Program-made: the position numbers and the translations under genes
Shown here: positions 6,628 through 63,644 of the stretch, piece by piece
Layout: each line of letters begins with the position of its first letter
Position numbering within the stretch: the first letter of the stretch is position 1
Source of the DNA: Mytilus edulis
Lineage: Eukaryota
Assembly (NCBI RefSeq): GCF_963676685.1
Contig: NC_092352.1
Coordinates: 40,362,001 to 40,426,000 of the forward strand
Direction of reading: 5' to 3'
Length of the DNA stretch: 64,000 bases
The notes under the pieces: model-generated
The model's input: only the letters and a program-made list of their open reading frames with translations
The model's database searches: none
Told to the model about the DNA's origin: nothing

Positions 6628-9789
<3,162 letters not shown>

Positions 9790-12712: not shown

Positions 12713-13413
12713 TCAATTTAATAATCAATATTTATAAAGCAAGACAGAGACATATATATATACATAATCAACTGGTCTAAACATCAACCCAACAATAGAT
12801 CTGTAAATTTGCTTTCGCAAATTTTTTGTTCTTCCCTCGCCGGGATTCGAACCCATGCTACTGAGATATCGTGACACCAAATCGCCTGCACTGTAGCCGC
12901 CCCGCTAGACCACACGACCACCTGGGCTTCACAATAATAAAGTTGTCGGTGGTCGTGTGTTACCTTTCCTCGTCAGTTTTAACTGTAGCCGTCCCGCTAG
13001 ACCACACGACCACCTGGGCTTCAGAATAATAAAGCTTTCGGTGGTCGTGTGTTCCCTTTCCTCGTCAGTTTTAATCTAGCGTCGTACTACAGTACATGAT
13101 ATATAAGGCATGGAGATGATATTGTTACAGATCAGCTCAATTATATATAGTAAAGGATCCTACAAATTAATGCAAGATACAGTCACAGAAAATAATTATA
13201 TACTGACTCAGACGTACAAATATATATATAGGCGATCCGATGGATACATCTGTTGTAGAGTTGTCACTGACTCAGACGTACTTATAAATATAATTATTTT
13301 CTGTGACTGTATATTACATTAATTTGTAGGATCCTTTACTATAGATAATTTAGCTGATCTGTAACAATAACATCTTCATGCCTTATATATCATGTACTGT
13401 AGTACGCCGCTAG

Positions 13414-13464
13414 ATTAAAACTGACGAGGAAAGGTAACACACGACCAGCGAAAGCTCTTTTAAT
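13414..13464 (+). ncRNA. Putative minimal type I hammerhead ribozyme
   Basis: attaaaa-CTGACGA-g...c-GAAA-gc-TC-ttttaat. Stem I is perfectly complementary (13414-13420 with 13458-13464), the core boxes are intact, and stem III is a palindromic AGCT mini-stem (dimer-type). Stem II is weak. Two further copies lie on the minus strand within ~12930-13077. Confidence 0.55.
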
Positions 13465-13468
13465 GAGA

Positions 13469-13563
13469 GCCCAGGTGGTCGTGTGGTCTAGCGGGACGGC
13501 TGCAGTGCAGGCGATTTGGTGTCGCGATATCACAGTAGCATGGGTTCGAATCCCGGCGAGGGA
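13469..13563 (+). ncRNA. tRNA-derived Pol III promoter segment (not a functional tRNA)
   Basis: A-box-like TGGTCGTGTGG and perfect B box GGTTCGAATCC at 13543-13553. Cloverleaf stems do not close. Inverted copy at ~12834-12928. Confidence 0.7.
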
Positions 13564-14467
13564 AGAACCAAAAATTTGCGAAAGCAAATTTACAGATCTA
13601 ACATTGTTGGGTTGATGTTTAGACGAGTTGTATATATACATGTGTATATCTGTCTCTGAGCAAGATATTGGTTGGTAACAAATATAAATATGGACCACTG
13701 AATTCAAATACAATGTAAACAATAAACACTAGCACATCATAGAGTGAGTCTTATTTTGAAAATTTTGAAAGAAAATCTCTGTATTAAAGTCCGTGGAAAT
13801 ACGCGTTTTCCTGTGCAAAGCAAGTTGCCTTTGTCATGGAATAGAAGTTTAGTAAACATTAACTTGAAAGAAGTCTGCTGGAAAACTATTTTAACAGTAT
13901 TTTTTCATGACGCATTGCAGGGTAAGTGTATGTAAAATATGTGTTCCTAAAGGAACAGATATAGCATTGTTTCTAAGTTTCCAAAAGAACTTCTGTTAAG
14001 AAGAAGACGCATCTACCGACAGGTGACAAGAATAATTATAAAATTGATTGGCAGTAACATATTTAAATTAGAGTTATCTCGCTTTAATCACAGTTTACCA
14101 AATGTTCAAACGGGAATAAAATTAGTCTCCAAGATACGATTTAGTATTCACAATTAAATGATACTCGAAACACAATAAATAATTCAGTTATATCTCCACA
14201 TACTAAAATGTGGAAACGTTCAACGCTTTTCCAACATAATTAAATCACAAGAAGCATTCAATATATATATGTAGTGTACGTAATAACATTTTTAAGAAAA
14301 GACTAGTTTCAAAAATCAAGCCTTTTATTTGTTTTTCTGTGTGTACAGTCATATTTGATGCATTTCATGCGAAAAAAACTTCAAACTTTAAGCATTGTCT
14401 GCGTTTCCAAAGATTAATCTAATTTCTGAACCTTCAAAGTACATGTATTGTCTATTTTCTTTTAATA

Positions 14468-15407: not shown

Positions 15408-17618
15408 GCTTAGGTATAAGTGCCGGTATGGATCTCTATGAAAGTGTACCAAATGGTTCTATAAAACAATAGGAAGGTTGGGATTAATTTTTGGGGTTAA
15501 TGTTCTATCTGTTTAGGGATGACTGGCCAAAATAAAGCAGTTTCTTGTTTCAGGACAATAACTTGGGTATAAGTGTATTGATCTATACAGAATTGAAGCA
15601 CAAGGTTCCATACATCAAATGAATGGTTGCGATCATGATTTTGGGTGTTATGACCCACACCGTCTTGGGTGCAAGGGCAAAAACAATGATTTTCTAGTTT
15701 CAAAACAATCACTTGAGTATAAGTCTGTGGATATTTATGAATATGTCATGACCATAAGGTTTCATACTTGAAAAATAATGTGATTGATTTTGGAGTTTTG
15801 GCCTGCTTTTAAACTAGTTCTCATTGCGGGGTCCAAATGGTTCGAAAGTAAACTTTGTTTGATCTCTTAATAAAAACAACATAAATGATTTGGATTCTTT
15901 GATATTTATGCTAGATCAAACTGTGTATTAAGAATTTAATTTTTTGGTCCCCATTTCATATGTGGTACGAGTGCCAATGAGACAACTCTCCATACAAGTC
16001 ACAATTTGTAAAAGTAAACCATTTTGATACATGTATTAGACCGTTTGTTTTCTCGTATGAATTGATTTTTATTTGTCATTTAATGGCCTTTTATAGCTGA
16101 CTATGCGGTATATGAGCTTTGCTTATTAATGAAGGTCATATCGTGACCTAAAGTTGTTATAATTACTGTGTCATTTGGTCTCTTGTAAAAGTTGTCTTAT
16201 TGGCAATCATATCACATCTTCTTCTTTATACATAAATCCAGTGGGCCCGAGAAAAGTTATTTCGTAGTGCATTTCTTTTGGACAATAAATTCATATCAAA
16301 AAAATTCGCACCTAGAAAAGCTAGTCTACCAGCTCTAACACAAAATATGGTAAATTCTGTGTTAAGGCGGTTTAAAATTCAGTTTGACAGCTTCAGACAT
16401 TCTTATTTTGATCTTTTGTAACTGGGCCAAATGACTACTAAGCATAAAGATTCAGCACCCATTTTTTTTACATGCAATTTTATCCCCTTACTTAATATTT
16501 CATGCATAAATATCAAGATGTACATTGGGAAAATGTATGAAAAAAATTTGCAAGTTATACACTGTTTACATGCACTAGAGACTATAATTCCTAATACCGC
16601 AGCCCCACTAGGCCACGATCACGATCTGTGAAAAAATACAAATTTTGATGATCGTAGTACGATCGTGTAGATCGCAGTGACGTCGCGCAAGATACTGGTG
16701 ACAATTTGAAGGTGATTCGAGAAAAATCGGCGAAAAGGCTAACTGTCCGTTTAGGACGCAACAATTTGCAGAATCGCTAAATAATTTTCGTTACCCAATC
16801 TAATGGCAACAAAATATCTGTTTTTCATGATATTTTTTTCACGAATAGGTTTCGATTTGAAGCGCTAAATTTTATGAAATAGGCAATTTTGCCGTGTAAT
16901 GCGTAACATTGAACATTGAGATCTCCAAACATTTTTGAGAATGAAATATGGATTGAGTAGCCAAAGGTAGTTCTCATTTGGAAGGAATTAAGAACCATAT
17001 GTAAAGTTTTGAATTACATAATTTTACTTACATATATGACGTCATACATGTAGAAAAATGACGTCATAGCAACTTTTTGATCTTGTAATGGTGACAAATA
17101 ATCTAGACTCCAACTGCAAACTTTGAAGATCAAATTCATATACTGAAGGTAATTTTAAAAGGATATCGTTTATATTTATAATTTATAAATTACAAACATT
17201 TCTGTTTAAATTGGTACCAAACTTTTTGAGTTTACTTGTTTTAAAAAAAAACTATTGAAAAAATTTAAAATCAGAAAAAATGTCCCGTATCATCTGAAAT
17301 CCAAACAAATATTCCATTTTGACGATTTCGGGATCTACGATGTATCGCGATTAAATCAGAAGAAAAATACTGATACAGATTTCAAAAATTACAACAAATA
17401 CTGAACATGATAATATAAATACTGGCTGTTTTTATATTTTATCCTTTTCGCAAATAAAGAAAAGAAAAATCAGAAAAAATGTCCAATGAGACAAAAAACG
17501 TCGAAAAATAATGAAACGTCATATTTCACACAGAGTCAATACGCAAAAGAAATTATAAGAAGAACTTGTAAAGAATCGATCTCCAAACATGAAACGATAT
17601 GGGCATGTTTTTGCCTTA

Positions 17619-18177
17619 GGGAGCTTCCATTTGATTTTTAAGGGGGGGGGGGGGGGGGCTAGAATGAAATTTGAAAAAGAGGGAGGACAGGGGTTTTGAG
17701 TGTAAAAAAAATGAATAAGAATGGAAACGGGGAATATGTCAAAGAGATAACAACCCGACCAAAACGTAGAAAACAGCTCAAGGCCACCAATGGGTCTTCA
17801 ACTTGCGAGAAATCCCGCACCCAGGGGAGGTCTTGAGTAGGCCCCGAAATCCTAATGTATACTAGATCAAGAAAATGGACGCCACTCTTCACTTCGAAAC
17901 ACAGAGATGAACTAAAAGTAAAAAAATATAAAAGACTAACAAAAGCTATAGGTACCTGACTTAGGACAGGCGCGAACTGCGGTGGGGTTAAAAGGGCAGG
18001 ATGAGCAGTTGGCAAACAAACCCAGGATAAACTTGTAAAAAAAGGCAGGACCAAATATAGTGAAAATAAAAAGGCAGGACCGAGATAACAACTAAAAAAA
18101 ATGCCGGACAAAATTTTTCATCCTAGCACCCCCCCCCCCCCCCCCCCCCCCCCCATTAAAATCAAATGGTTGCTCCC
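17619..18177. mobile_element. PIF/Harbinger-type MITE with poly-G/poly-C subterminal tracts
   Basis: TIRs gggagcttccatttgatttt...(G)n-ctag and ctagca-(C)n...aaaatcaaatggttgctccc. TTA TSD at 17616-17618 and 18178-18180. Contains a family-A repeat at ~17712-17993. Confidence 0.85.
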
Positions 18178-18503
18178 TTAATGAAATAAAAATATTATTC
18201 TATATTAAAATTCGTAAAAAATGATTTGACTTTAGGAAGTTCTGGAACAATCTAAAAGAAGAGTTACCATATTAGATAATTTTCGTAGACAAAACAAGAG
18301 GCACCAATCCCTTCAAACAACCGAAATGATCTCTGGTGTTTCAGGAGAATGATTAGTTCCAAAAAAATAAAACACGAGACAAAAAAGACTCATATTTAAT
18401 TATTGAATGTATTTATAAACCAACAATCAATTAAAATAATCGGACTTAAAAAAATCAGACCAAAATTTTGTGTACATTCAAATATAAATATGCTTTCAGA
18501 AAT

Positions 18504-21158
18504 ATGAATAACAGAAAAAAAAGTAAACTTTCGGCTAAGGAAATACTTATTAGGAACAGAGAACGAAAAAGGCTTCAGAAAAATGAAACGAGTAGAAAAT
18601 CTTATGGAAAGTTGTACAAGAATAAAGAGAGCGAGACAAAAACATATAGTCAAACGATTAATGCAAGAAAAAAGAGAGAACAAAGGGAGAAATCTAAGAA
18701 AATAAATGAAAGAAAACTGAAAAATAAAATGAATGTCCGTAAACACAGAGGTAAAAAAAATGTAGAACTTTCATCAATGTCACTTGTTGTACCAGAAGGT
18801 TCAAATGTTTTCAAAAACAGAATGGAAAAGGCCAGAGCCCTAAGAAAATTTAAAGAAGGTTTACCAAAATCTCCATCTAAACGATGCGCAGTTATATCGA
18901 CTTATTTGGCCCGCAGATCCCCTCGATCGCCAACAATAGCTAATCTGAAACATTCAGTTTCGCCAGTTGAAATGGCCGTCGTTGCAGATATTCAAGAAAT
19001 AATAAAATCTACAAAATTAAAGCGATCTAAGAATGCACGTTCGGTAATGAATTCTGTTACTGCATCAATCAGCGGGGAAAATTTAGCAAACTCGAGAGGT
19101 AAAATTAAACTGTGTAAAAATTTAGGTTTGCCAGCAAGAAGGGTTGCTGGAGGCCAGCGTATTAGGTCTAGAATTCTTAAAAGTGAATCGTCTGCATGGG
19201 CTCTTACGCAACAGAAAACAAGAAAAGATTCCATTTCAGAAGAAACAAAGAAAACAGTTTATAACTTTTGGCTCTCTGATGGCATATCACACCCGACCGG
19301 CAACAAATCCGATATCAAAAGAGAACGATTGGGACCAAACTTATATACTTCGCATATGACACACGTGCTGGAAAAAACACAAACTGATGCGTATTTAGAT
19401 TTTGTCGCCAAATATCCGGAAATTAAAATTGGACAAAGAGCATTTGAGAAACTTCGACCGTTTTTCGTAAGACCTGCATCTGAAAAAGATAGAAATACAT
19501 GCTGTTGTAGATATCACGTGGAAGCAAACCTTGTTTTCAAAGCATGTATGAAGTTCAGAAAATCGTGTGACAGGGAAACCGATTCGCAAGAAAGTGACTA
19601 TCCCGTATTTGAGAAAATGTCAGACCTTATACATATTACGCTATGTCCAAAAGTAAATGGATTTTATAGAAAAAATTGTCTTGACCGAAAATGTAGCCTT
19701 TGCGGCGTTGGTAATTTCAAACTTTCACCCAACGAATCACAGTCGTCTTCAACTGTTGAATGGCAAAAATATGAATATATAACTGAAAAATCGAAGGGTA
19801 AAAATGTAAGGCGCCGACTGACCCTGATAAAAAAGAAAACTAGCGTAAACGAAATGTTTCTCAATTTAAAAAAGCTTCTCGAAACTTTCCCCGCTCACCA
19901 GCACCGATCAAACTGGCAAAGCAATCAACTTAAAAGTCTTGTTCAGAACTTGCCAGTCAATCATTGCATATGCATCCACGATTATTCGGAAAATTATCGC
20001 TGTGTCGAGAAAGAAGAAATCCAATCCAATTACTTCCAAAGAACTGAATGCAGCATTCATGTAACCGTCATGCACCGACACGCCATTTTAGAATACGATG
20101 GTATAGACAGTACAGAAGAATTTCCGGAAATAATTACGGAACATTTTTTCGTAATTTCCCCGGACCTGCAACATGATAATGATTTTACAAAATATGTCCA
20201 AAAGAAAGTTAAGGAATATTTAGATTCAATATCATACACAGTTGATCATATGCATGAATTCACAGACGGTTGTTCTAGCCAATATAAATCGCGGCACTGT
20301 TTAGGAAGTTTATCTACTGCCATCCCTGATTTGGGATATAAAACATTCCATAGAAATTTCTTTGAAACAAGCCATGCAAAAGGGCCTCAAGATGCCGCGG
20401 GGGGATTTATAAAAAGACAGGCGGACATATCTGTTCTACGTGGCAATACAGTGATTCAGAATGCGAAGGATTTATTTACGTTCTGCGAAAGTAGCCTTAA
20501 AAAGCCAAGAAGTGCATTATTTAAAAGAAGGGTATTTCGATATGTGGACTCAATTGATAGACACAATTCCAAAATATTTAAGCCGATCCAGCAAAATAGA
20601 CAAATACATCATGTTTTTACTAGTACATGTAATGAAATCATTGTTTCCGATCTCTCTTGTTACACGTGCGATCAATGCATTTTGGGGAATTATCTTAACT
20701 GTTTAAATGTAGAAAATACCGGGGTAAAGAAAACTATTAAGCCACGCGAAATAACACAAACTTCTAACGAAGAAGAAGTAGCACAAGACACTGACATTCT
20801 TTCAGAAGACATATCAGATTTGGTATCCATAAACTCTGTTGTGGCTGTCAAAACCGACGATGATAACTTTGACTATTATTTAATGAAAATTTCCAAAGGT
20901 TCACACGTATTGAATTCAGCAGAGAGTGACAGCTGGGGTGCTACATATCCCCCTGGATTCGAGGTTTTCCGGGGTCATTATTATGACAAAATCAGTGACA
21001 ATGATCCGTTAAAATATAAACTTTTAAAGACAAAGACTGCTTTGGTACCGACGAAATCTCTGCTATACATACTTGCTGATGTAGATGCCTCTTATCGTAT
21101 AACTATTTCAGAGGACACCCATCTAGACATTCTTTCTGTATTGGACAATTTGGATTGA
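18504..21158 (+). CDS. Putative DDD/E transposase, Sola-like (884 aa from first ATG; the ORF track starts it at a TTG at 18468)
   Basis: Uninterrupted ORF inside the TIRs. Basic N-terminus, Cys clusters (TCCCRYH, CLDRKCSLC, SCYTCDQC), and RNase H-like catalytic motifs IHDYSENY, FTDGCSSQYK and FFETSHAKGPQDAAGG. Superfamily call is from motif recognition only. An upstream exon via tttcag at ~18499 is possible. Confidence 0.8.
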   Translation: MNNRKKSKLSAKEILIRNRERKRLQKNETSRKSYGKLYKNKESETKTYSQTINARKKREQREKSKKINERKLKNKMNVRKHRGKKNVELSSMSLVVPEGSNVFKNRMEKARALRKFKEGLPKSPSKRCAVISTYLARRSPRSPTIANLKHSVSPVEMAVVADIQEIIKSTKLKRSKNARSVMNSVTASISGENLANSRGKIKLCKNLGLPARRVAGGQRIRSRILKSESSAWALTQQKTRKDSISEETKKTVYNFWLSDGISHPTGNKSDIKRERLGPNLYTSHMTHVLEKTQTDAYLDFVAKYPEIKIGQRAFEKLRPFFVRPASEKDRNTCCCRYHVEANLVFKACMKFRKSCDRETDSQESDYPVFEKMSDLIHITLCPKVNGFYRKNCLDRKCSLCGVGNFKLSPNESQSSSTVEWQKYEYITEKSKGKNVRRRLTLIKKKTSVNEMFLNLKKLLETFPAHQHRSNWQSNQLKSLVQNLPVNHCICIHDYSENYRCVEKEEIQSNYFQRTECSIHVTVMHRHAILEYDGIDSTEEFPEIITEHFFVISPDLQHDNDFTKYVQKKVKEYLDSISYTVDHMHEFTDGCSSQYKSRHCLGSLSTAIPDLGYKTFHRNFFETSHAKGPQDAAGGFIKRQADISVLRGNTVIQNAKDLFTFCESSLKKPRSALFKRRVFRYVDSIDRHNSKIFKPIQQNRQIHHVFTSTCNEIIVSDLSCYTCDQCILGNYLNCLNVENTGVKKTIKPREITQTSNEEEVAQDTDILSEDISDLVSINSVVAVKTDDDNFDYYLMKISKGSHVLNSAESDSWGATYPPGFEVFRGHYYDKISDNDPLKYKLLKTKTALVPTKSLLYILADVDASYRITISEDTHLDILSVLDNLD

Positions 21159-21274
21159 AATAAGAATTAAATTATAAAACATCATGCACTGTTGTTTAGC
21201 CACTCATAAAATATTTTAGTAGACCTTTCCGATTCAAATGAAATGATTCAACGTGGCTCTGCTTATAATTAAAA

Positions 21275-21456
21275 AATATAATATATATATATATATATAT
21301 ATATAAGTACGTCTGAGTCAGTGACAACCCTACAACAGATGTATCCATCGGATCGCCATCAATGATGGTGATACATGGCTGTGTACATAATGTATATACA
21401 ACTCGTCTAAACATAATGTTTAGACGAGTTGTATATATATATATATATATATATAC
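21275..21456 (-). mobile_element. Short fragment of the hammerhead/tRNA-like unit embedded in (TA)n
   Basis: 21303-21357 is the reverse complement of 13231-13285, and 21399-21414 is the reverse complement of 13615-13630. A 16-bp inverted copy follows, with (TA)n on both sides. Confidence 0.85.
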
Positions 21457-23384
21457 ATTTTTCGTTAAATAAAATATACATGAATATCTTTACTGAAAAA
21501 AAATATTCCCATGAAAAAAAACCTGAATGAATCAATGCTTACACATTAGAAATCACATTAGAAAAACGTTACGTAAAAAACAAGAAAATAAGACGGCTTT
21601 TTGCTATATTTCCGACGTTACGTTATTATCACCAGTATTTTGCGCGACGTCAGACTTAAGGTCGTATCACGGTCGTGGTGAGGTCTTCAAGATCGTGATG
21701 AGCGTGGCCAACTTTGAACATGTTCAAAACAATCGTGGTGCGGTCGTGGCGAAATCAGGTCGCAGTAGAACCGTAGTGAGAGCGCAATAAGATCGTAGAA
21801 AGATCGCAAAGGTCGCTGTACCATCGTAGCGAGAGCGTAGCGAAAGCGTGATTCTATTCGGAGAAACTGCTCTACGAGCTCACAGCGACGTTATTACGAC
21901 CTCACTACGACTATCACGTTCTCACCGCGACCCAACTGCGCTTCCACTACGACTATACCACGCTGTTCACGACCAAAGTACGATTCTAGCACGCCCTTGC
22001 CGTCCTCATCACGCTCTTCTTACGACCTGACTACGTTCATACTACGACCAATATTCTTATTGTCATTTTCACATAAAATATATTAAATCTCTCCAGGTTT
22101 TGTTTGTCTTTATGTAATTGGGACCTCTTGTCCATTTTCTCTAACGACTCAACCATGCTTCTCGTTTTCATATAGATAAGACCGTTGGTTTTCCCGTTTG
22201 AATGGTTTTACACTAGTAATTTTGGGGGCCCTTTATATCTTAATGTTCGGTGTGAACCAATGCTCCGTGTTGTAGGCCGTACCTTGGCCTATAATGGTTT
22301 ACTTTTAAAAGTTATTACTTGGGTGGAGAGTTGTCTCATTGGCACTCATACCACATCTTCCTATATCTATTGACACATCTGTGTCATCTCTCGGCTACCG
22401 TTCACTAAAATATCGTCATTTCAGCTTTATGGACCAGCAATAGGTTGTAAATTAGGTTGGATTGGTCGGTCCGAAATTTCTACTTGATCAGGATTCGTTA
22501 CTATCAGAGCTCCCTCTGCCTCTACATCAACCCCCACCACCACACCCACGTGTTCTAGTAGATTTTGGTGACATAACTATTGTTTCCGAGAAATCTACGT
22601 ATTAATCAGAAATAGAAGGAATGGAACTGTATTAGTATGGAACACGATGTTGACGTTATTGCTGAGAGCGTAGTAAGATCGCGGTATGAACATGGTAAAT
22701 AAATAAAAAATAAATAAATAATCTTTATTTCAAGAGGAGAATCGTGGTAAGCACGTGCTATAATCGCAGTAGAAGCGTGGTAAGATCATGTTGCAATCGG
22801 ATAACTCGTGGTATGGTCGTAGTGAGAACGTGATGAGCGTGGAAAGATCTTGATAAGCGTAGTGAGGTCGCAGAATAAGCGCGGTGAGAACATGGTATAA
22901 TCGTAGCGGGATCGTTGTAGAAGCGTAATGAGGACGTAGTAGCATCGTGAAAGCAATGAAAATTTACATTTTCCTGCCGCTCATACCGCGACAGCACCAC
23001 GATCTGAATTTATTTTTAGATCGCGGTGAGCGTGGTGCAATCGTGGTCTAGTGGGACTGGGGCTTAAATCAAATGACGATAACTGTAGACTCGGACCAGT
23101 TTGGCAAGACAGGCTCGTCCGGACCTCTACAGCATCGTTCATGGTGAAGATAAGTCCAGAAATATGATCAACCGCACCAAAATAAAATCGACGTATATTT
23201 TTTTCTCCATCTAATCACATATATTTCGGCTTTATAATATTTCTTAATTTATCTTTAATTCAACATATTGGTCTTTTGTTTTGGGGATGTACAAGTACCC
23301 GGTCACATCCACTCTGTGATTTTGTTACATGTATTTATATGTGTATCAATTAATCTGATGAGTTAAGGCTTTTTAAACTGATTT

Positions 23385-25656: not shown

Positions 25657-28575
<2,919 letters not shown>

Positions 28576-61002: not shown

Positions 61003-61364
61003 TTATACTTCTATAAATAAGTCTCAGATTGTACCTGTCCAAATACAAATAAGAAATGAATTTAACATTCTTAAAAACAAAAGGGGGGGGGGGGACGAAA
61101 TGACCCTCATACAGAGAGGAATGTCACAGTAACATTTTCTCAGTTCTGATATAAAACAAATTATACAAGGTGCAATGTGTAATTAAAGAAAGGCAATTTA
61201 TAGCTGGAAATTTTTGTGTTCAGGAACCGGTTTCAGTTCATTCTTTTTTCTTTTGCAGTACTCATTGAAAGATGTTGACATAACTGTCTATCTTCATCAA
61301 CATATGAAAACTCCTTTAAATTTACACAAAGAATTTTTTATTACAGAAATTAAAGTGAGAAAAT

Positions 61365-63644
61365 ATGGACAAAGACCAGCACCATAACAGCTTAGAACCA
61401 GCAAAGGGAGAAAACAGCTTAGAACCAGCAAAGGGAGAAAACAGCTTAGAACCAGCAAACGGAGAACACAGCTTAGAACCAGCAAAGGGAGAAAACAGCT
61501 TAGAACCAGCAAACGGAGAAAACAGCTTAGAACCAGCAAACGGAGATAACAGCTTAGAACCAGCAAACGGAGAAAACAGCTTAGAACCAGCAAAGGGAGA
61601 AAACAGCTTAGAACCAGCAAACGGAGAAAACAGCTTAGAACCAGCAAACGGAGAAAACAGCTTAGAACCAGCAAAGGGAGAAAACAGCTTAGAATCAGCA
61701 AATAAAGAACAAGAATCTGAAGTTCCAGAAGAGGGTATTTCTCAGACTGACGTAACTTCTGATAAAAATACATCAATCATTTCTACACTGAAGCAAAAGG
61801 ACGGGAAATATCAATGTACAGTTTGCCAAAAGTTTTTTCTAAAACACACAATCAGACGGCATATAAAAAATTTCCATGCTGATGGTAAAACGCATGTTTG
61901 TAGAATTTGTCTGGCAGTTTTTAGTCAAAAGTATGATCTTATAATTCATACAAAAACAGCACATTCAAGACCTCCAAATTACAAATGCAATATTTGTGAC
62001 AAAACTTATATGCACAAGAATTCATTGATTAGACACAAGGAATGCCATTCTGATACAGAATTTCTCTGTAAAATTTGTAATAAAAACTTCAAATCAAGTG
62101 ATAGTCTTAAAAAGCATTGTTCTTCCCATGGAAAAGAGAAAAAATATATATGTAGCGTGTGTGGAAATAAATTCATGGAAAAACATTATTTAAAGATTCA
62201 TATGGCGTCCCATTCAAATGACAAACTTAGGGAATGCACAATATGTAATAGAAAATTTAGTACTATTGCTCAATGTAAAACCCACGAAGAAAAAGTGCAT
62301 GCTGGGAATATTACATTTACGTGTCCAGTCTGTAATAAATTTTATTTTGAATCTTATCAATTAAAAAACCACATGAAAAAACATTCTGTCGCTGAAAAGA
62401 AACCTGGTTATAAATGTGGCACTTGTGGCAAAAGTATAACAACTCGTTGGTCATTGAAAAAACATGAGTTAAGACATTTGGGAGTTGAAAAAATTCGATG
62501 TGATATATGTGACAAAGGTTTTAGTGATAATTATACATTAAAGAAACATAAAAAGTTGATACATACTCTCAACTTCGATTTTAAATGTCAAATTTGCGGC
62601 CAAGGCTTTGTCTGCAAAGAAAAGTATAAACACCATCAAGCAAGGCATCTCAAGATTAGAAAACATCAATGTAATTTCTGCAAGAGAAAGTTTTTGTTAG
62701 AGAGGAGTTGCATTAGTCATATGAAAATAAAACATCAGGATGAATATTTTGCTGGTAAAAAATCATCTCTTCATGAATGTGAATTTTGTGGGAAAAAATT
62801 CTTGTATTTAAAACTTAGAAATGAACACATCAAGCTTCACACTGGACATAGACCCCTTATTTGTCAATTTTGTAATAAATCATATAGAACACAACAGACT
62901 CTTGCACTTCATGAGAAAAGACATACAAATCCATTTGAGTGTGGAATATGCCATGCACAATTTATTCAAAAGCATTTGCTTTTAAAACATTTGAAAAAAC
63001 ATGAAGATACTACTACCAAAGACCATCAACGACAACAGAATATCAGTGTTAAAGAACAAACACAATTTGGTCATGATAATCTACTTAAAATTGAGGCCAA
63101 CAATTCTCATGATCCAATGTATATGGTACACTCAGAAGGAGCAGTGGATGAACAAAGTCAATTTGGAATGAATAGTAAACTGTCCAAAGAAAATCATACA
63201 TCAAAGGAATTAAGATGTAGTAACGATGTGTTACAAATTCAAGGTGGGATTCAACCATCATGTGAGACTCCACTAGCATTGTGGACTGAAGGTCTAAATA
63301 TAGAAGCAGTGAATGATGAGATAAAACCAGAAATCATAAACGAAATTAAGGAGGAAGTAAAAACAATTGAACCAGAGACAAACGATCATCAAATGAAAGA
63401 ACAAAGTACATTTCTTAATCATGGTCAAAGATCAGATACAGGATACTTAAGTACATGTAGTTCTGGGTTCCCTTTGAAAACAGAACACACTTTACAGCAG
63501 AATATAGTAAACCCATTAAATGGTAATGTTGTAACAATGACTAAACTTGGATCAGTGAAGGTGAATACTGAAGATCTTCAGAAAATACTCAATAGGGGAA
63601 ATATTTTGGATATCATAAAATCTCAGACACAAAATGATTTATAA
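61365..63644 (+). CDS. C2H2 zinc-finger protein (14 fingers) with N-terminal 9-aa tandem repeat
   Basis: 759-aa ORF with 14 CxxC...HxxxH/HxxxxH units from YQCTVC to FECGICH. Splice acceptor ttacag at 61345-61346 just upstream of the ATG, so upstream exons are likely. Confidence 0.92.
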   Translation: MDKDQHHNSLEPAKGENSLEPAKGENSLEPANGEHSLEPAKGENSLEPANGENSLEPANGDNSLEPANGENSLEPAKGENSLEPANGENSLEPANGENSLEPAKGENSLESANKEQESEVPEEGISQTDVTSDKNTSIISTLKQKDGKYQCTVCQKFFLKHTIRRHIKNFHADGKTHVCRICLAVFSQKYDLIIHTKTAHSRPPNYKCNICDKTYMHKNSLIRHKECHSDTEFLCKICNKNFKSSDSLKKHCSSHGKEKKYICSVCGNKFMEKHYLKIHMASHSNDKLRECTICNRKFSTIAQCKTHEEKVHAGNITFTCPVCNKFYFESYQLKNHMKKHSVAEKKPGYKCGTCGKSITTRWSLKKHELRHLGVEKIRCDICDKGFSDNYTLKKHKKLIHTLNFDFKCQICGQGFVCKEKYKHHQARHLKIRKHQCNFCKRKFLLERSCISHMKIKHQDEYFAGKKSSLHECEFCGKKFLYLKLRNEHIKLHTGHRPLICQFCNKSYRTQQTLALHEKRHTNPFECGICHAQFIQKHLLLKHLKKHEDTTTKDHQRQQNISVKEQTQFGHDNLLKIEANNSHDPMYMVHSEGAVDEQSQFGMNSKLSKENHTSKELRCSNDVLQIQGGIQPSCETPLALWTEGLNIEAVNDEIKPEIINEIKEEVKTIEPETNDHQMKEQSTFLNHGQRSDTGYLSTCSSGFPLKTEHTLQQNIVNPLNGNVVTMTKLGSVKVNTEDLQKILNRGNILDIIKSQTQNDL
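61386..61709 (+). repeat. Coding minisatellite, 27 bp x 12 (NSLEPA[K/N]GE)
   Basis: aacagcttagaaccagcaaa[g/c]ggagaa repeated in frame. Confidence 0.95.

Follow-up and report, generated by a model that had tools for sequence, protein, structure and literature searches.

A Sola2-type transposon within a repetitive host element

We analyzed a stretch of 64,000 nucleotides from Mytilus edulis (contig NC_092352.1, positions 40,362,001 to 40,426,000 of the forward strand; here called the window), which contains a 4,973-bp element at positions 16679 to 21651 (+) that, judged by its sequence, is an autonomous DNA transposon of the Sola2 type. The element is bounded by 27-bp terminal inverted repeats (TIRs) beginning with 5′-GACGTC; the left TIR occupies positions 16679 to 16705 (+), and the right TIR, which differs from it by two mismatches, occupies positions 21625 to 21651 (−). 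Between them lies an intronless transposase open reading frame (ORF) of 884 amino acids (18504 to 21158, +), with the ATG at position 18504 in a frame that is open from 18450 to 21158. An initial annotation of the window had described an intact Sola-like element with 27-bp TIRs and an uninterrupted transposase of about 884 amino acids, and the TIRs, the open frame, and the Sola2 motifs described below bear this out. The closest protein match was 99% identical and labeled Mytilus edulis, and relatives were found in other bivalves and in cnidarians.

The transposon sits 84 bases inside a second, noncoding TIR element (positions 16595 to 23064, about 1.3 to 1.5 kb when uninterrupted) that is flanked by a TAA duplication at positions 16592 to 16594 and 23065 to 23067. 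This host element has 1,177 candidates in the genome. TAA on both sides of the window locus corresponds to the 3-bp TWA duplication of PIF/Harbinger elements; TAA or TTA left flanks were present in most of 29 host loci, and exact pairs were present in about half of the 14 loci with both ends. By its target-site duplication (TSD) only, the host element is probably Harbinger-like. The host family was dropped as a TSD control because it is too old.

Transposase identity

A Pfam scan of the 884-amino-acid transposase yielded no family above the cutoff, a sequence-profile search of the PDB yielded no match, and Foldseek against the PDB gave no match at an E value of ≤0.001, only weak RNase H-fold rows. 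A structure model of the central 533 residues (predicted local distance difference test score [pLDDT], 85.6) had integrases, Mos1, IstA, and an Argonaute (PIWI) as its best structural matches, tied at Z scores of 8.0 to 8.4, with root mean square deviations of 3.2 to 3.9 and 141 to 173 aligned residues. These matches cover model residues 238 to 444, for which an RNase H/integrase-like fold is predicted. The putative first, second, and third catalytic aspartates, D493 (motif DYSENY; 19980 to 19982, +), D588 (FTDGCSSQYK; 20265 to 20267, +), and D630 (FFETSHAKGPQDAAGG; 20391 to 20393, +), are present without exception in all 59 aligned relatives and correspond to the Sola2 motifs DF(A/S)ENY, FSDG(A/C)xxQYK, and FFATSHGKSACDGVGG. 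Compared by eye, the three motifs match both the Sola2 rows from Repbase given in the PMC3627910 supplement and the consensus letters of the Sola2 hidden Markov model (HMM) in the supplement of PMC5751038. The DDD pattern DF(A/S)ENY, SDGxxxQYK, and HGK...DG.GG is shared with Repbase Sola2-2_HM, Sola2-5_HM, Sola2-5/6_AAe, and Sola2-2_SP and with Dictyostelium DFa-2, and the Sola2 rows of the PMC3627910 supplement also resemble the mussel element in transposase length (about 880 to 890 amino acids), short TIRs, and 5-kb size. In the curated bivalve library supplementing PMC10294476, where the opening few hundred bases of every entry are displayed, 4 of the 14 Sola2 consensus sequences start with a near-identical TIR. 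These four families (Sola2_C.ariakensis_11, Sola2_B.platifrons_35, Sola2_M.edulis_39, and Sola2_T.granosa_17; 3 to 5 kb, from bivalve hosts) share the GACGTCGCGCA.GATACTGGTG type of TIR start and differ from the mussel element internal to the TIR in the displayed part; the text and headers consulted give no TSD length for them.

Because of the three aspartate motifs and the near-identical TIRs on curated bivalve families, the element is, as far as sequence tells, of the Sola2 type, with a terminal type already curated in bivalves. The distinct DDD/E lineage that the initial annotation had envisaged thus gives way to a sub-lineage of Sola2, as judged by motifs. In a midpoint-rooted tree of relatives, which held no named Sola2 sequence and left out L351 as too short, the window element and its relatives, those from other animals included, grouped together in a clade of 33 rows (support, 100/99), with six distant Sola2-like rows falling outside it.

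Two divergent Sola2-like loci were seen along the way. One (L108:1560-6330, −; G000:C6) has a distant Sola2-like frame of 876 amino acids that overlaps the start of a same-strand frame of 736 amino acids, the latter with a weak OTU-like protease match (E value of 7e-4, below the cutoff); the ends of this element were not found, and it is possible that it represents a two-gene Sola2 element. The other (L107:2078-6136, −; G000:C7) is a near-single-copy frame of 1,353 codons with a Sola2-like core and a long C-terminal coiled-coil repeat, possibly a domesticated or chimeric gene. The latter was tried as a canonical Sola2 control within the genome and, being near single copy, was unusable.

Three-base-pair duplications across copies and families

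A search with the TIR pattern produced 30 exact matches in the genome, compared to 0 for the reversed control. These 30 ends comprised 13 pairs and four single ends; two of the singles (L044 and L045) belong to copies whose left partner is clipped by 1 or 4 bases. Exact 3-bp repeats flanked 6 of the 13 pairs, compared to 0.92 expected by mispairing, while exact 4-bp repeats were present at 2 and a one-base triplet mismatch at 5 of the 13. For three copies (L032, L033, and L034), empty paralogous sites were exactly 3 bases shorter. Paralog searches with the flanks of L037, L035, and L039 returned only the query itself or one weak match, and four read runs on the flank of L031, itself a repeat, recovered no empty allele. 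A second family with 57 to 60% amino acid identity carried 3-bp repeats in three of six paired copies, with one more each for L103 and L155.

The third family examined is 4.2 kb long and mostly noncoding. A partner end lay in range for 58 of its 75 loci; 49 remained once an altered end, a head-to-head pair, a member of another family, and six same-site duplicates had been excluded. Exact 3-bp repeats were present at 32 of these (one of them, L152, ambiguous), compared to 3.12 expected. For this family and that of the window element combined, 38 of 62 sites had exact 3-bp repeats and 4 of 62 had exact 4-bp repeats (0.66 expected). At the 38 perfect sites, the flanks showed a purine (R) at position −5 (30 sites), a pyrimidine (Y) at −4 (31 sites), R at +1 (36 sites), and Y at +2 (35 sites); the target preference is a loosely palindromic RY-NNN-RY. 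The 4.2-kb family (L141 to L215) has the same TIR type, frames of at most 140 codons in all of ten copies checked, and a transposase match in L164 only; we regard it as an unusually long nonautonomous Sola2 partner. One of its copies is nested in a different repeat and has been multiplied 7 times, the flanks staying identical.

According to the available text of PMC3627910 and PMC10741241, the TSD of Sola and Sola2 is 4 bp; the corresponding portions of PMC4455052 and PMC5199201 give no TSD length for Sola2. The mussel element departs from the published Sola2 descriptions consulted in its 3-bp TSD, its RY-NNN-RY target, and its 35 to 54% share of irregular junctions. Since it lacks the canonical 4-bp TSD, we place it as a variant sub-lineage. 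A 3-bp TSD is reportedly also typical of Zator; unlike the GAC ends found here, Zator-labeled ends start with GGG, and the transposase motifs here are of the Sola2 type. The literature searched contained no report of a Sola2 element with a 3-bp TSD or of junction imprecision, with the founding paper and Repbase/Dfam lying outside that search, so that either may already be on record.

Beyond Mytilus, relatives on animal-derived contigs (metagenomes and metagenome-assembled genome [MAG] bins) carry ends of the GAC or GAT type. Three of them (L342, L349, and L335) have 3-bp repeats, and about six others lack them. TIR-bearing Sola2 relatives also occur on short contigs of bacterial MAGs (L342 to L354; Sedimenticola and Pacebacteria), which are likely animal host DNA binned into these MAGs.

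The junction of the window copy

The window copy shows no exact direct repeat of at least 2 bp at its junction (left, ..GCAGT; right, AGACTT..), as had been pointed out in the initial annotation. That annotation had further stated that removal of the element restores CAGTAGAC and had suggested that the element may belong to a lineage with blunt integration at T^A, without a TSD. To read the empty site, 30 host loci were fetched, one of which was the window itself and two of which lacked an anchor; the matching host position was mostly TCGCAGTAAGG. A two-anchor search found CGCAGTAAG in 27 of 31 paralogous matches; each of the remaining four differs by a single base, and none has the AGAC form. 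Because the empty host site is CGCAGTAAG and not CAGTAGAC, the insertion added six bases (AGACTT; 21652 to 21657, +), where a 3-bp duplication would give three. In run X24, 435 raw reads skip exactly 4,979 bases, i.e., the element plus 6. The motifs cited earlier at positions 21760 to 21769 and 22763 to 22773 are present; they are other units of the 11-bp subterminal repeats of the host, off the matching position. Six bases were added here, other copies have a regular 3-bp TSD, and the 30 ends show no preference for T^A. Both outcomes that the initial annotation had named as contradicting it, a regular TSD in other copies and a different empty site, were observed.

The likely target triplet is AGT, the left copy of which is intact (16676 to 16678, +); the empty host site CGC-AGT-AAG fits the R-Y-NNN-R part of the family preference. 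AGACTT can be read as AG+ACT+T, with the reverse complement of AGT inside, but this parse is not unique. Judged by sequence, the window copy is most simply read as an insertion at AGT whose right side is irregular. Symmetric termini that take in the flanking T/A were ruled out, given that this position varies among the 30 TIR ends, and a 4-bp TSD through inward-shifted termini is impossible, as it would require G to equal C. Reads placed on the window locus displayed the host consensus, with no orthologous allele isolated and no junction-spanning read seen among them. In one host copy (L049, near position 1580), a different element occupies a site one to three bases away from the corresponding position (after CGCAGTAA), a hint of a favored insertion spot in the host element.

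Copy age and irregular junctions

Within the ORF, divergence from the column majority was 0.0 to 0.34% (substitutions) in 14 of 15 copies; that of the remaining one (L036) is inflated by a large insertion. The full 902-codon frame is kept in six copies (the window copy, L032, L033, L039, L040, and L046, the left end of the last being out of range). Because multiple copies keep the full open frame, recent activity is likely; together with the low divergence, this agrees with the possible activity suggested by the initial annotation. Despite this youth, 7 of 13 junctions of the family are irregular, with a P value of about 3e-9 under drift at 0.35% divergence, and so are 17 of 49 junctions of the 4.2-kb family. 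Irregular forms consist of one filler base plus a triplet (6 of 24, compared to 1.3 expected; four of these are the 4-bp repeats), single-mismatch triplets (14 of 24, compared to 7.2 expected), and clipped ends. Irregular and perfect copies of the 4.2-kb family are equally diverged (1.97% and 2.01%). As a control, we used a young KolobokP-like family in the same assembly, of which 7 of 22 loci were dropped for lack of a right end. It had exact 4-bp repeats at 14 of 15 loci and a 6-bp repeat at the remaining one, in contrast to 6 of 13 exact repeats in the family of the window element (Fisher test, P = 0.011) and 32 of 49 in the 4.2-kb family (P = 0.048). Since drift is too small for such young copies and the control family is clean, junction imprecision looks like a property of the lineage. 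A 451-bp terminal unit of the control family (GGTCCGAGA ends, 4-bp TSD), seen as an insertion in L034 and at G000:C1:32.60-32.67 Mb, C1:39.24-39.26 Mb, and C3:1.30-1.36 Mb, has 460 exact matches. It occurs solo, as unit-internal-unit (2,198 bp), and as extended tandem arrays with a period of 1747/3038. This architecture fits KolobokP as described in the available part of PMC9587614.

Alternative explanations

We favor, at a probability of about 0.85, the reading that the element is a young autonomous Sola2 transposon of a lineage with a 3-bp TSD and that the window copy likely inserted at AGT, its irregular right junction stemming from repair. By analogy with DDE/D transposases generally, a DDD transposase with an RNase H fold would recognize the 27-bp TIRs, cut the element out, and insert it by strand transfer across a 3-nucleotide stagger at loosely palindromic RY-NNN-RY sites; gap repair by the host would then create the 3-bp duplication. 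While this chemistry is modeled on other transposases, the duplication and the target preference are seen in the sequence, as are the irregular outcomes: in a third to a half of events, the junction has a mismatched base, filler, what looks like a 4-bp repeat, or a clipped end. Such irregularity would most likely arise from error-prone repair at insertion or after recutting of one end. Several observations weigh against this reading. The empty site was read from paralogous host copies only and not from the orthologous allele; six other irregular junctions of the family yielded no empty site, and some of these could be TSD-less or 4-bp insertions; most of the approximately ten contigs of other animals with both ends have no exact 3-bp repeat, and L294/L295 have a 4-bp ATAT, although these short-read contigs are possibly chimeric. 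In addition, the Sola2 assignment is a comparison of motifs by eye, and the fold matches, at Z scores of 8.0 to 8.4, are at a level that the tool rates as common.

A separate, Spy-like lineage with blunt integration at T^A would account for the missing direct repeat at the window junction and for the 7 of 13 family junctions without an exact 3-bp repeat, but it is very improbable: six bases were added at the window locus relative to CGCAGTAAG (27 of 31), three sister sites gained exactly three, and the 30 ends lack a T^A preference. A host allele CAGTAGACTTAAGG without the element is what it would need at the window site, and at the family level it is already refuted. Spy, a PHIS-related element according to the available text of PMC4122938, inserts at AAA^TTT and leaves the site unmodified. 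The mussel element likewise combines TIRs with a DDE/D transposase and lacks a flanking repeat in the window; unlike Spy, its family adds 3 bases, is found at AAA^TTT at 0 of 13 paired sites, and encodes a protein with Sola2 motifs. The element is no further example of Spy-like blunt integration.

Alternatively, the irregular junctions could be artifacts of assembly or polishing, or they could reflect ordinary mutations that accumulated later in a plain 3-bp TSD. Insertion junctions of multicopy, possibly heterozygous elements are prone to assembly error, copy L038 contains Ns, and no read was seen across the window junction; the 15 of 15 exact repeats of the control family in the same assembly, the drift estimate, and the equal divergence of irregular and perfect 4.2-kb copies render this explanation unlikely. 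A somewhat better, though still doubtful, candidate is that overhangs of donor flank on the excised element are partly retained in the 3-nucleotide target gap, which would make one half of the TSD donor sequence, akin to the behavior of piggyBac. Two copies that share four derived substitutions (L036 and L037) both have the right flank TTT and unmatched left flanks, and the excess of one-mismatch triplets is compatible with such carry-over. In the 4.2-kb family, the nearest copy by p-distance shared the same-side triplet for 6 of 15 irregular copies (1.96 expected; P = 0.014), whereas perfect copies displayed no such sharing (2 of 27; 2.58 expected). However, two of the six matches are one reciprocal pair, the effect disappeared when neighbors were defined by shared derived changes (2 of 14; 1.87 expected; P = 0.58), and the family of the window element showed none by p-distance (1 of 7; 0.86 expected). 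Carry-over alone also leaves the six added window bases and the clipped ends of L044 and L045 unexplained. Equally tentative is the broader idea that a Sola2 clade with GAC/GAT ends, widespread in marine invertebrates, uses a 3-nucleotide stagger and intrinsically imprecise joining with donor-flank carry-over, which would leave up to half of its insertions without a true TSD.

While the family type is known, the 3-bp TSD and the sloppy junctions are what may be new. TSD length serves the classification of DNA transposons, and given a 3-bp Sola2 clade, noncoding bivalve elements with 3-bp flanks could be misfiled as Harbinger or Zator; calls of "no TSD" from a single locus are unsafe for such a clade. 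Frequent irregular junctions in very young copies suggest something unusual in the cut-and-join or repair step, and if imprecise joining with carry-over holds true, the intact mussel copy would be a substrate for studying Sola transposition chemistry.

Other features of the element and the window

Within the transposon, a nested TIR element with GGGAGC..GCTCCC ends and a TTA duplication (17619 to 18177) is common to the full-length sister copies; compared by eye, its ends resemble the starts of Zator-labeled consensus sequences. A short high-copy repeat flanked by two (TA)n tracts occupies positions 21281 to 21460; additional insertions into this tract were seen in sister copies L034, L041, and L046. 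The element ends (16679 to 17656 and 21467 to 21651) were recovered from runs X5 and X6 as contigs of high depth (590 and 94, compared to 12 and 7 for a flank), which suggests that other individuals or species harbor a deletion derivative in abundance; contig depth over the ORF was low in both runs and was not counted as evidence. Elsewhere in the window, three frames (8461 to 9789, +; 25657 to 26808, −; 61359 to 63644, +) comprise two tubulin frames and one C2H2 zinc-finger frame, and positions 12742 to 13657 contain nested long inverted repeats (arms of 175 and 133 nucleotides) together with a 92-bp tandem pair, resembling a foldback element.

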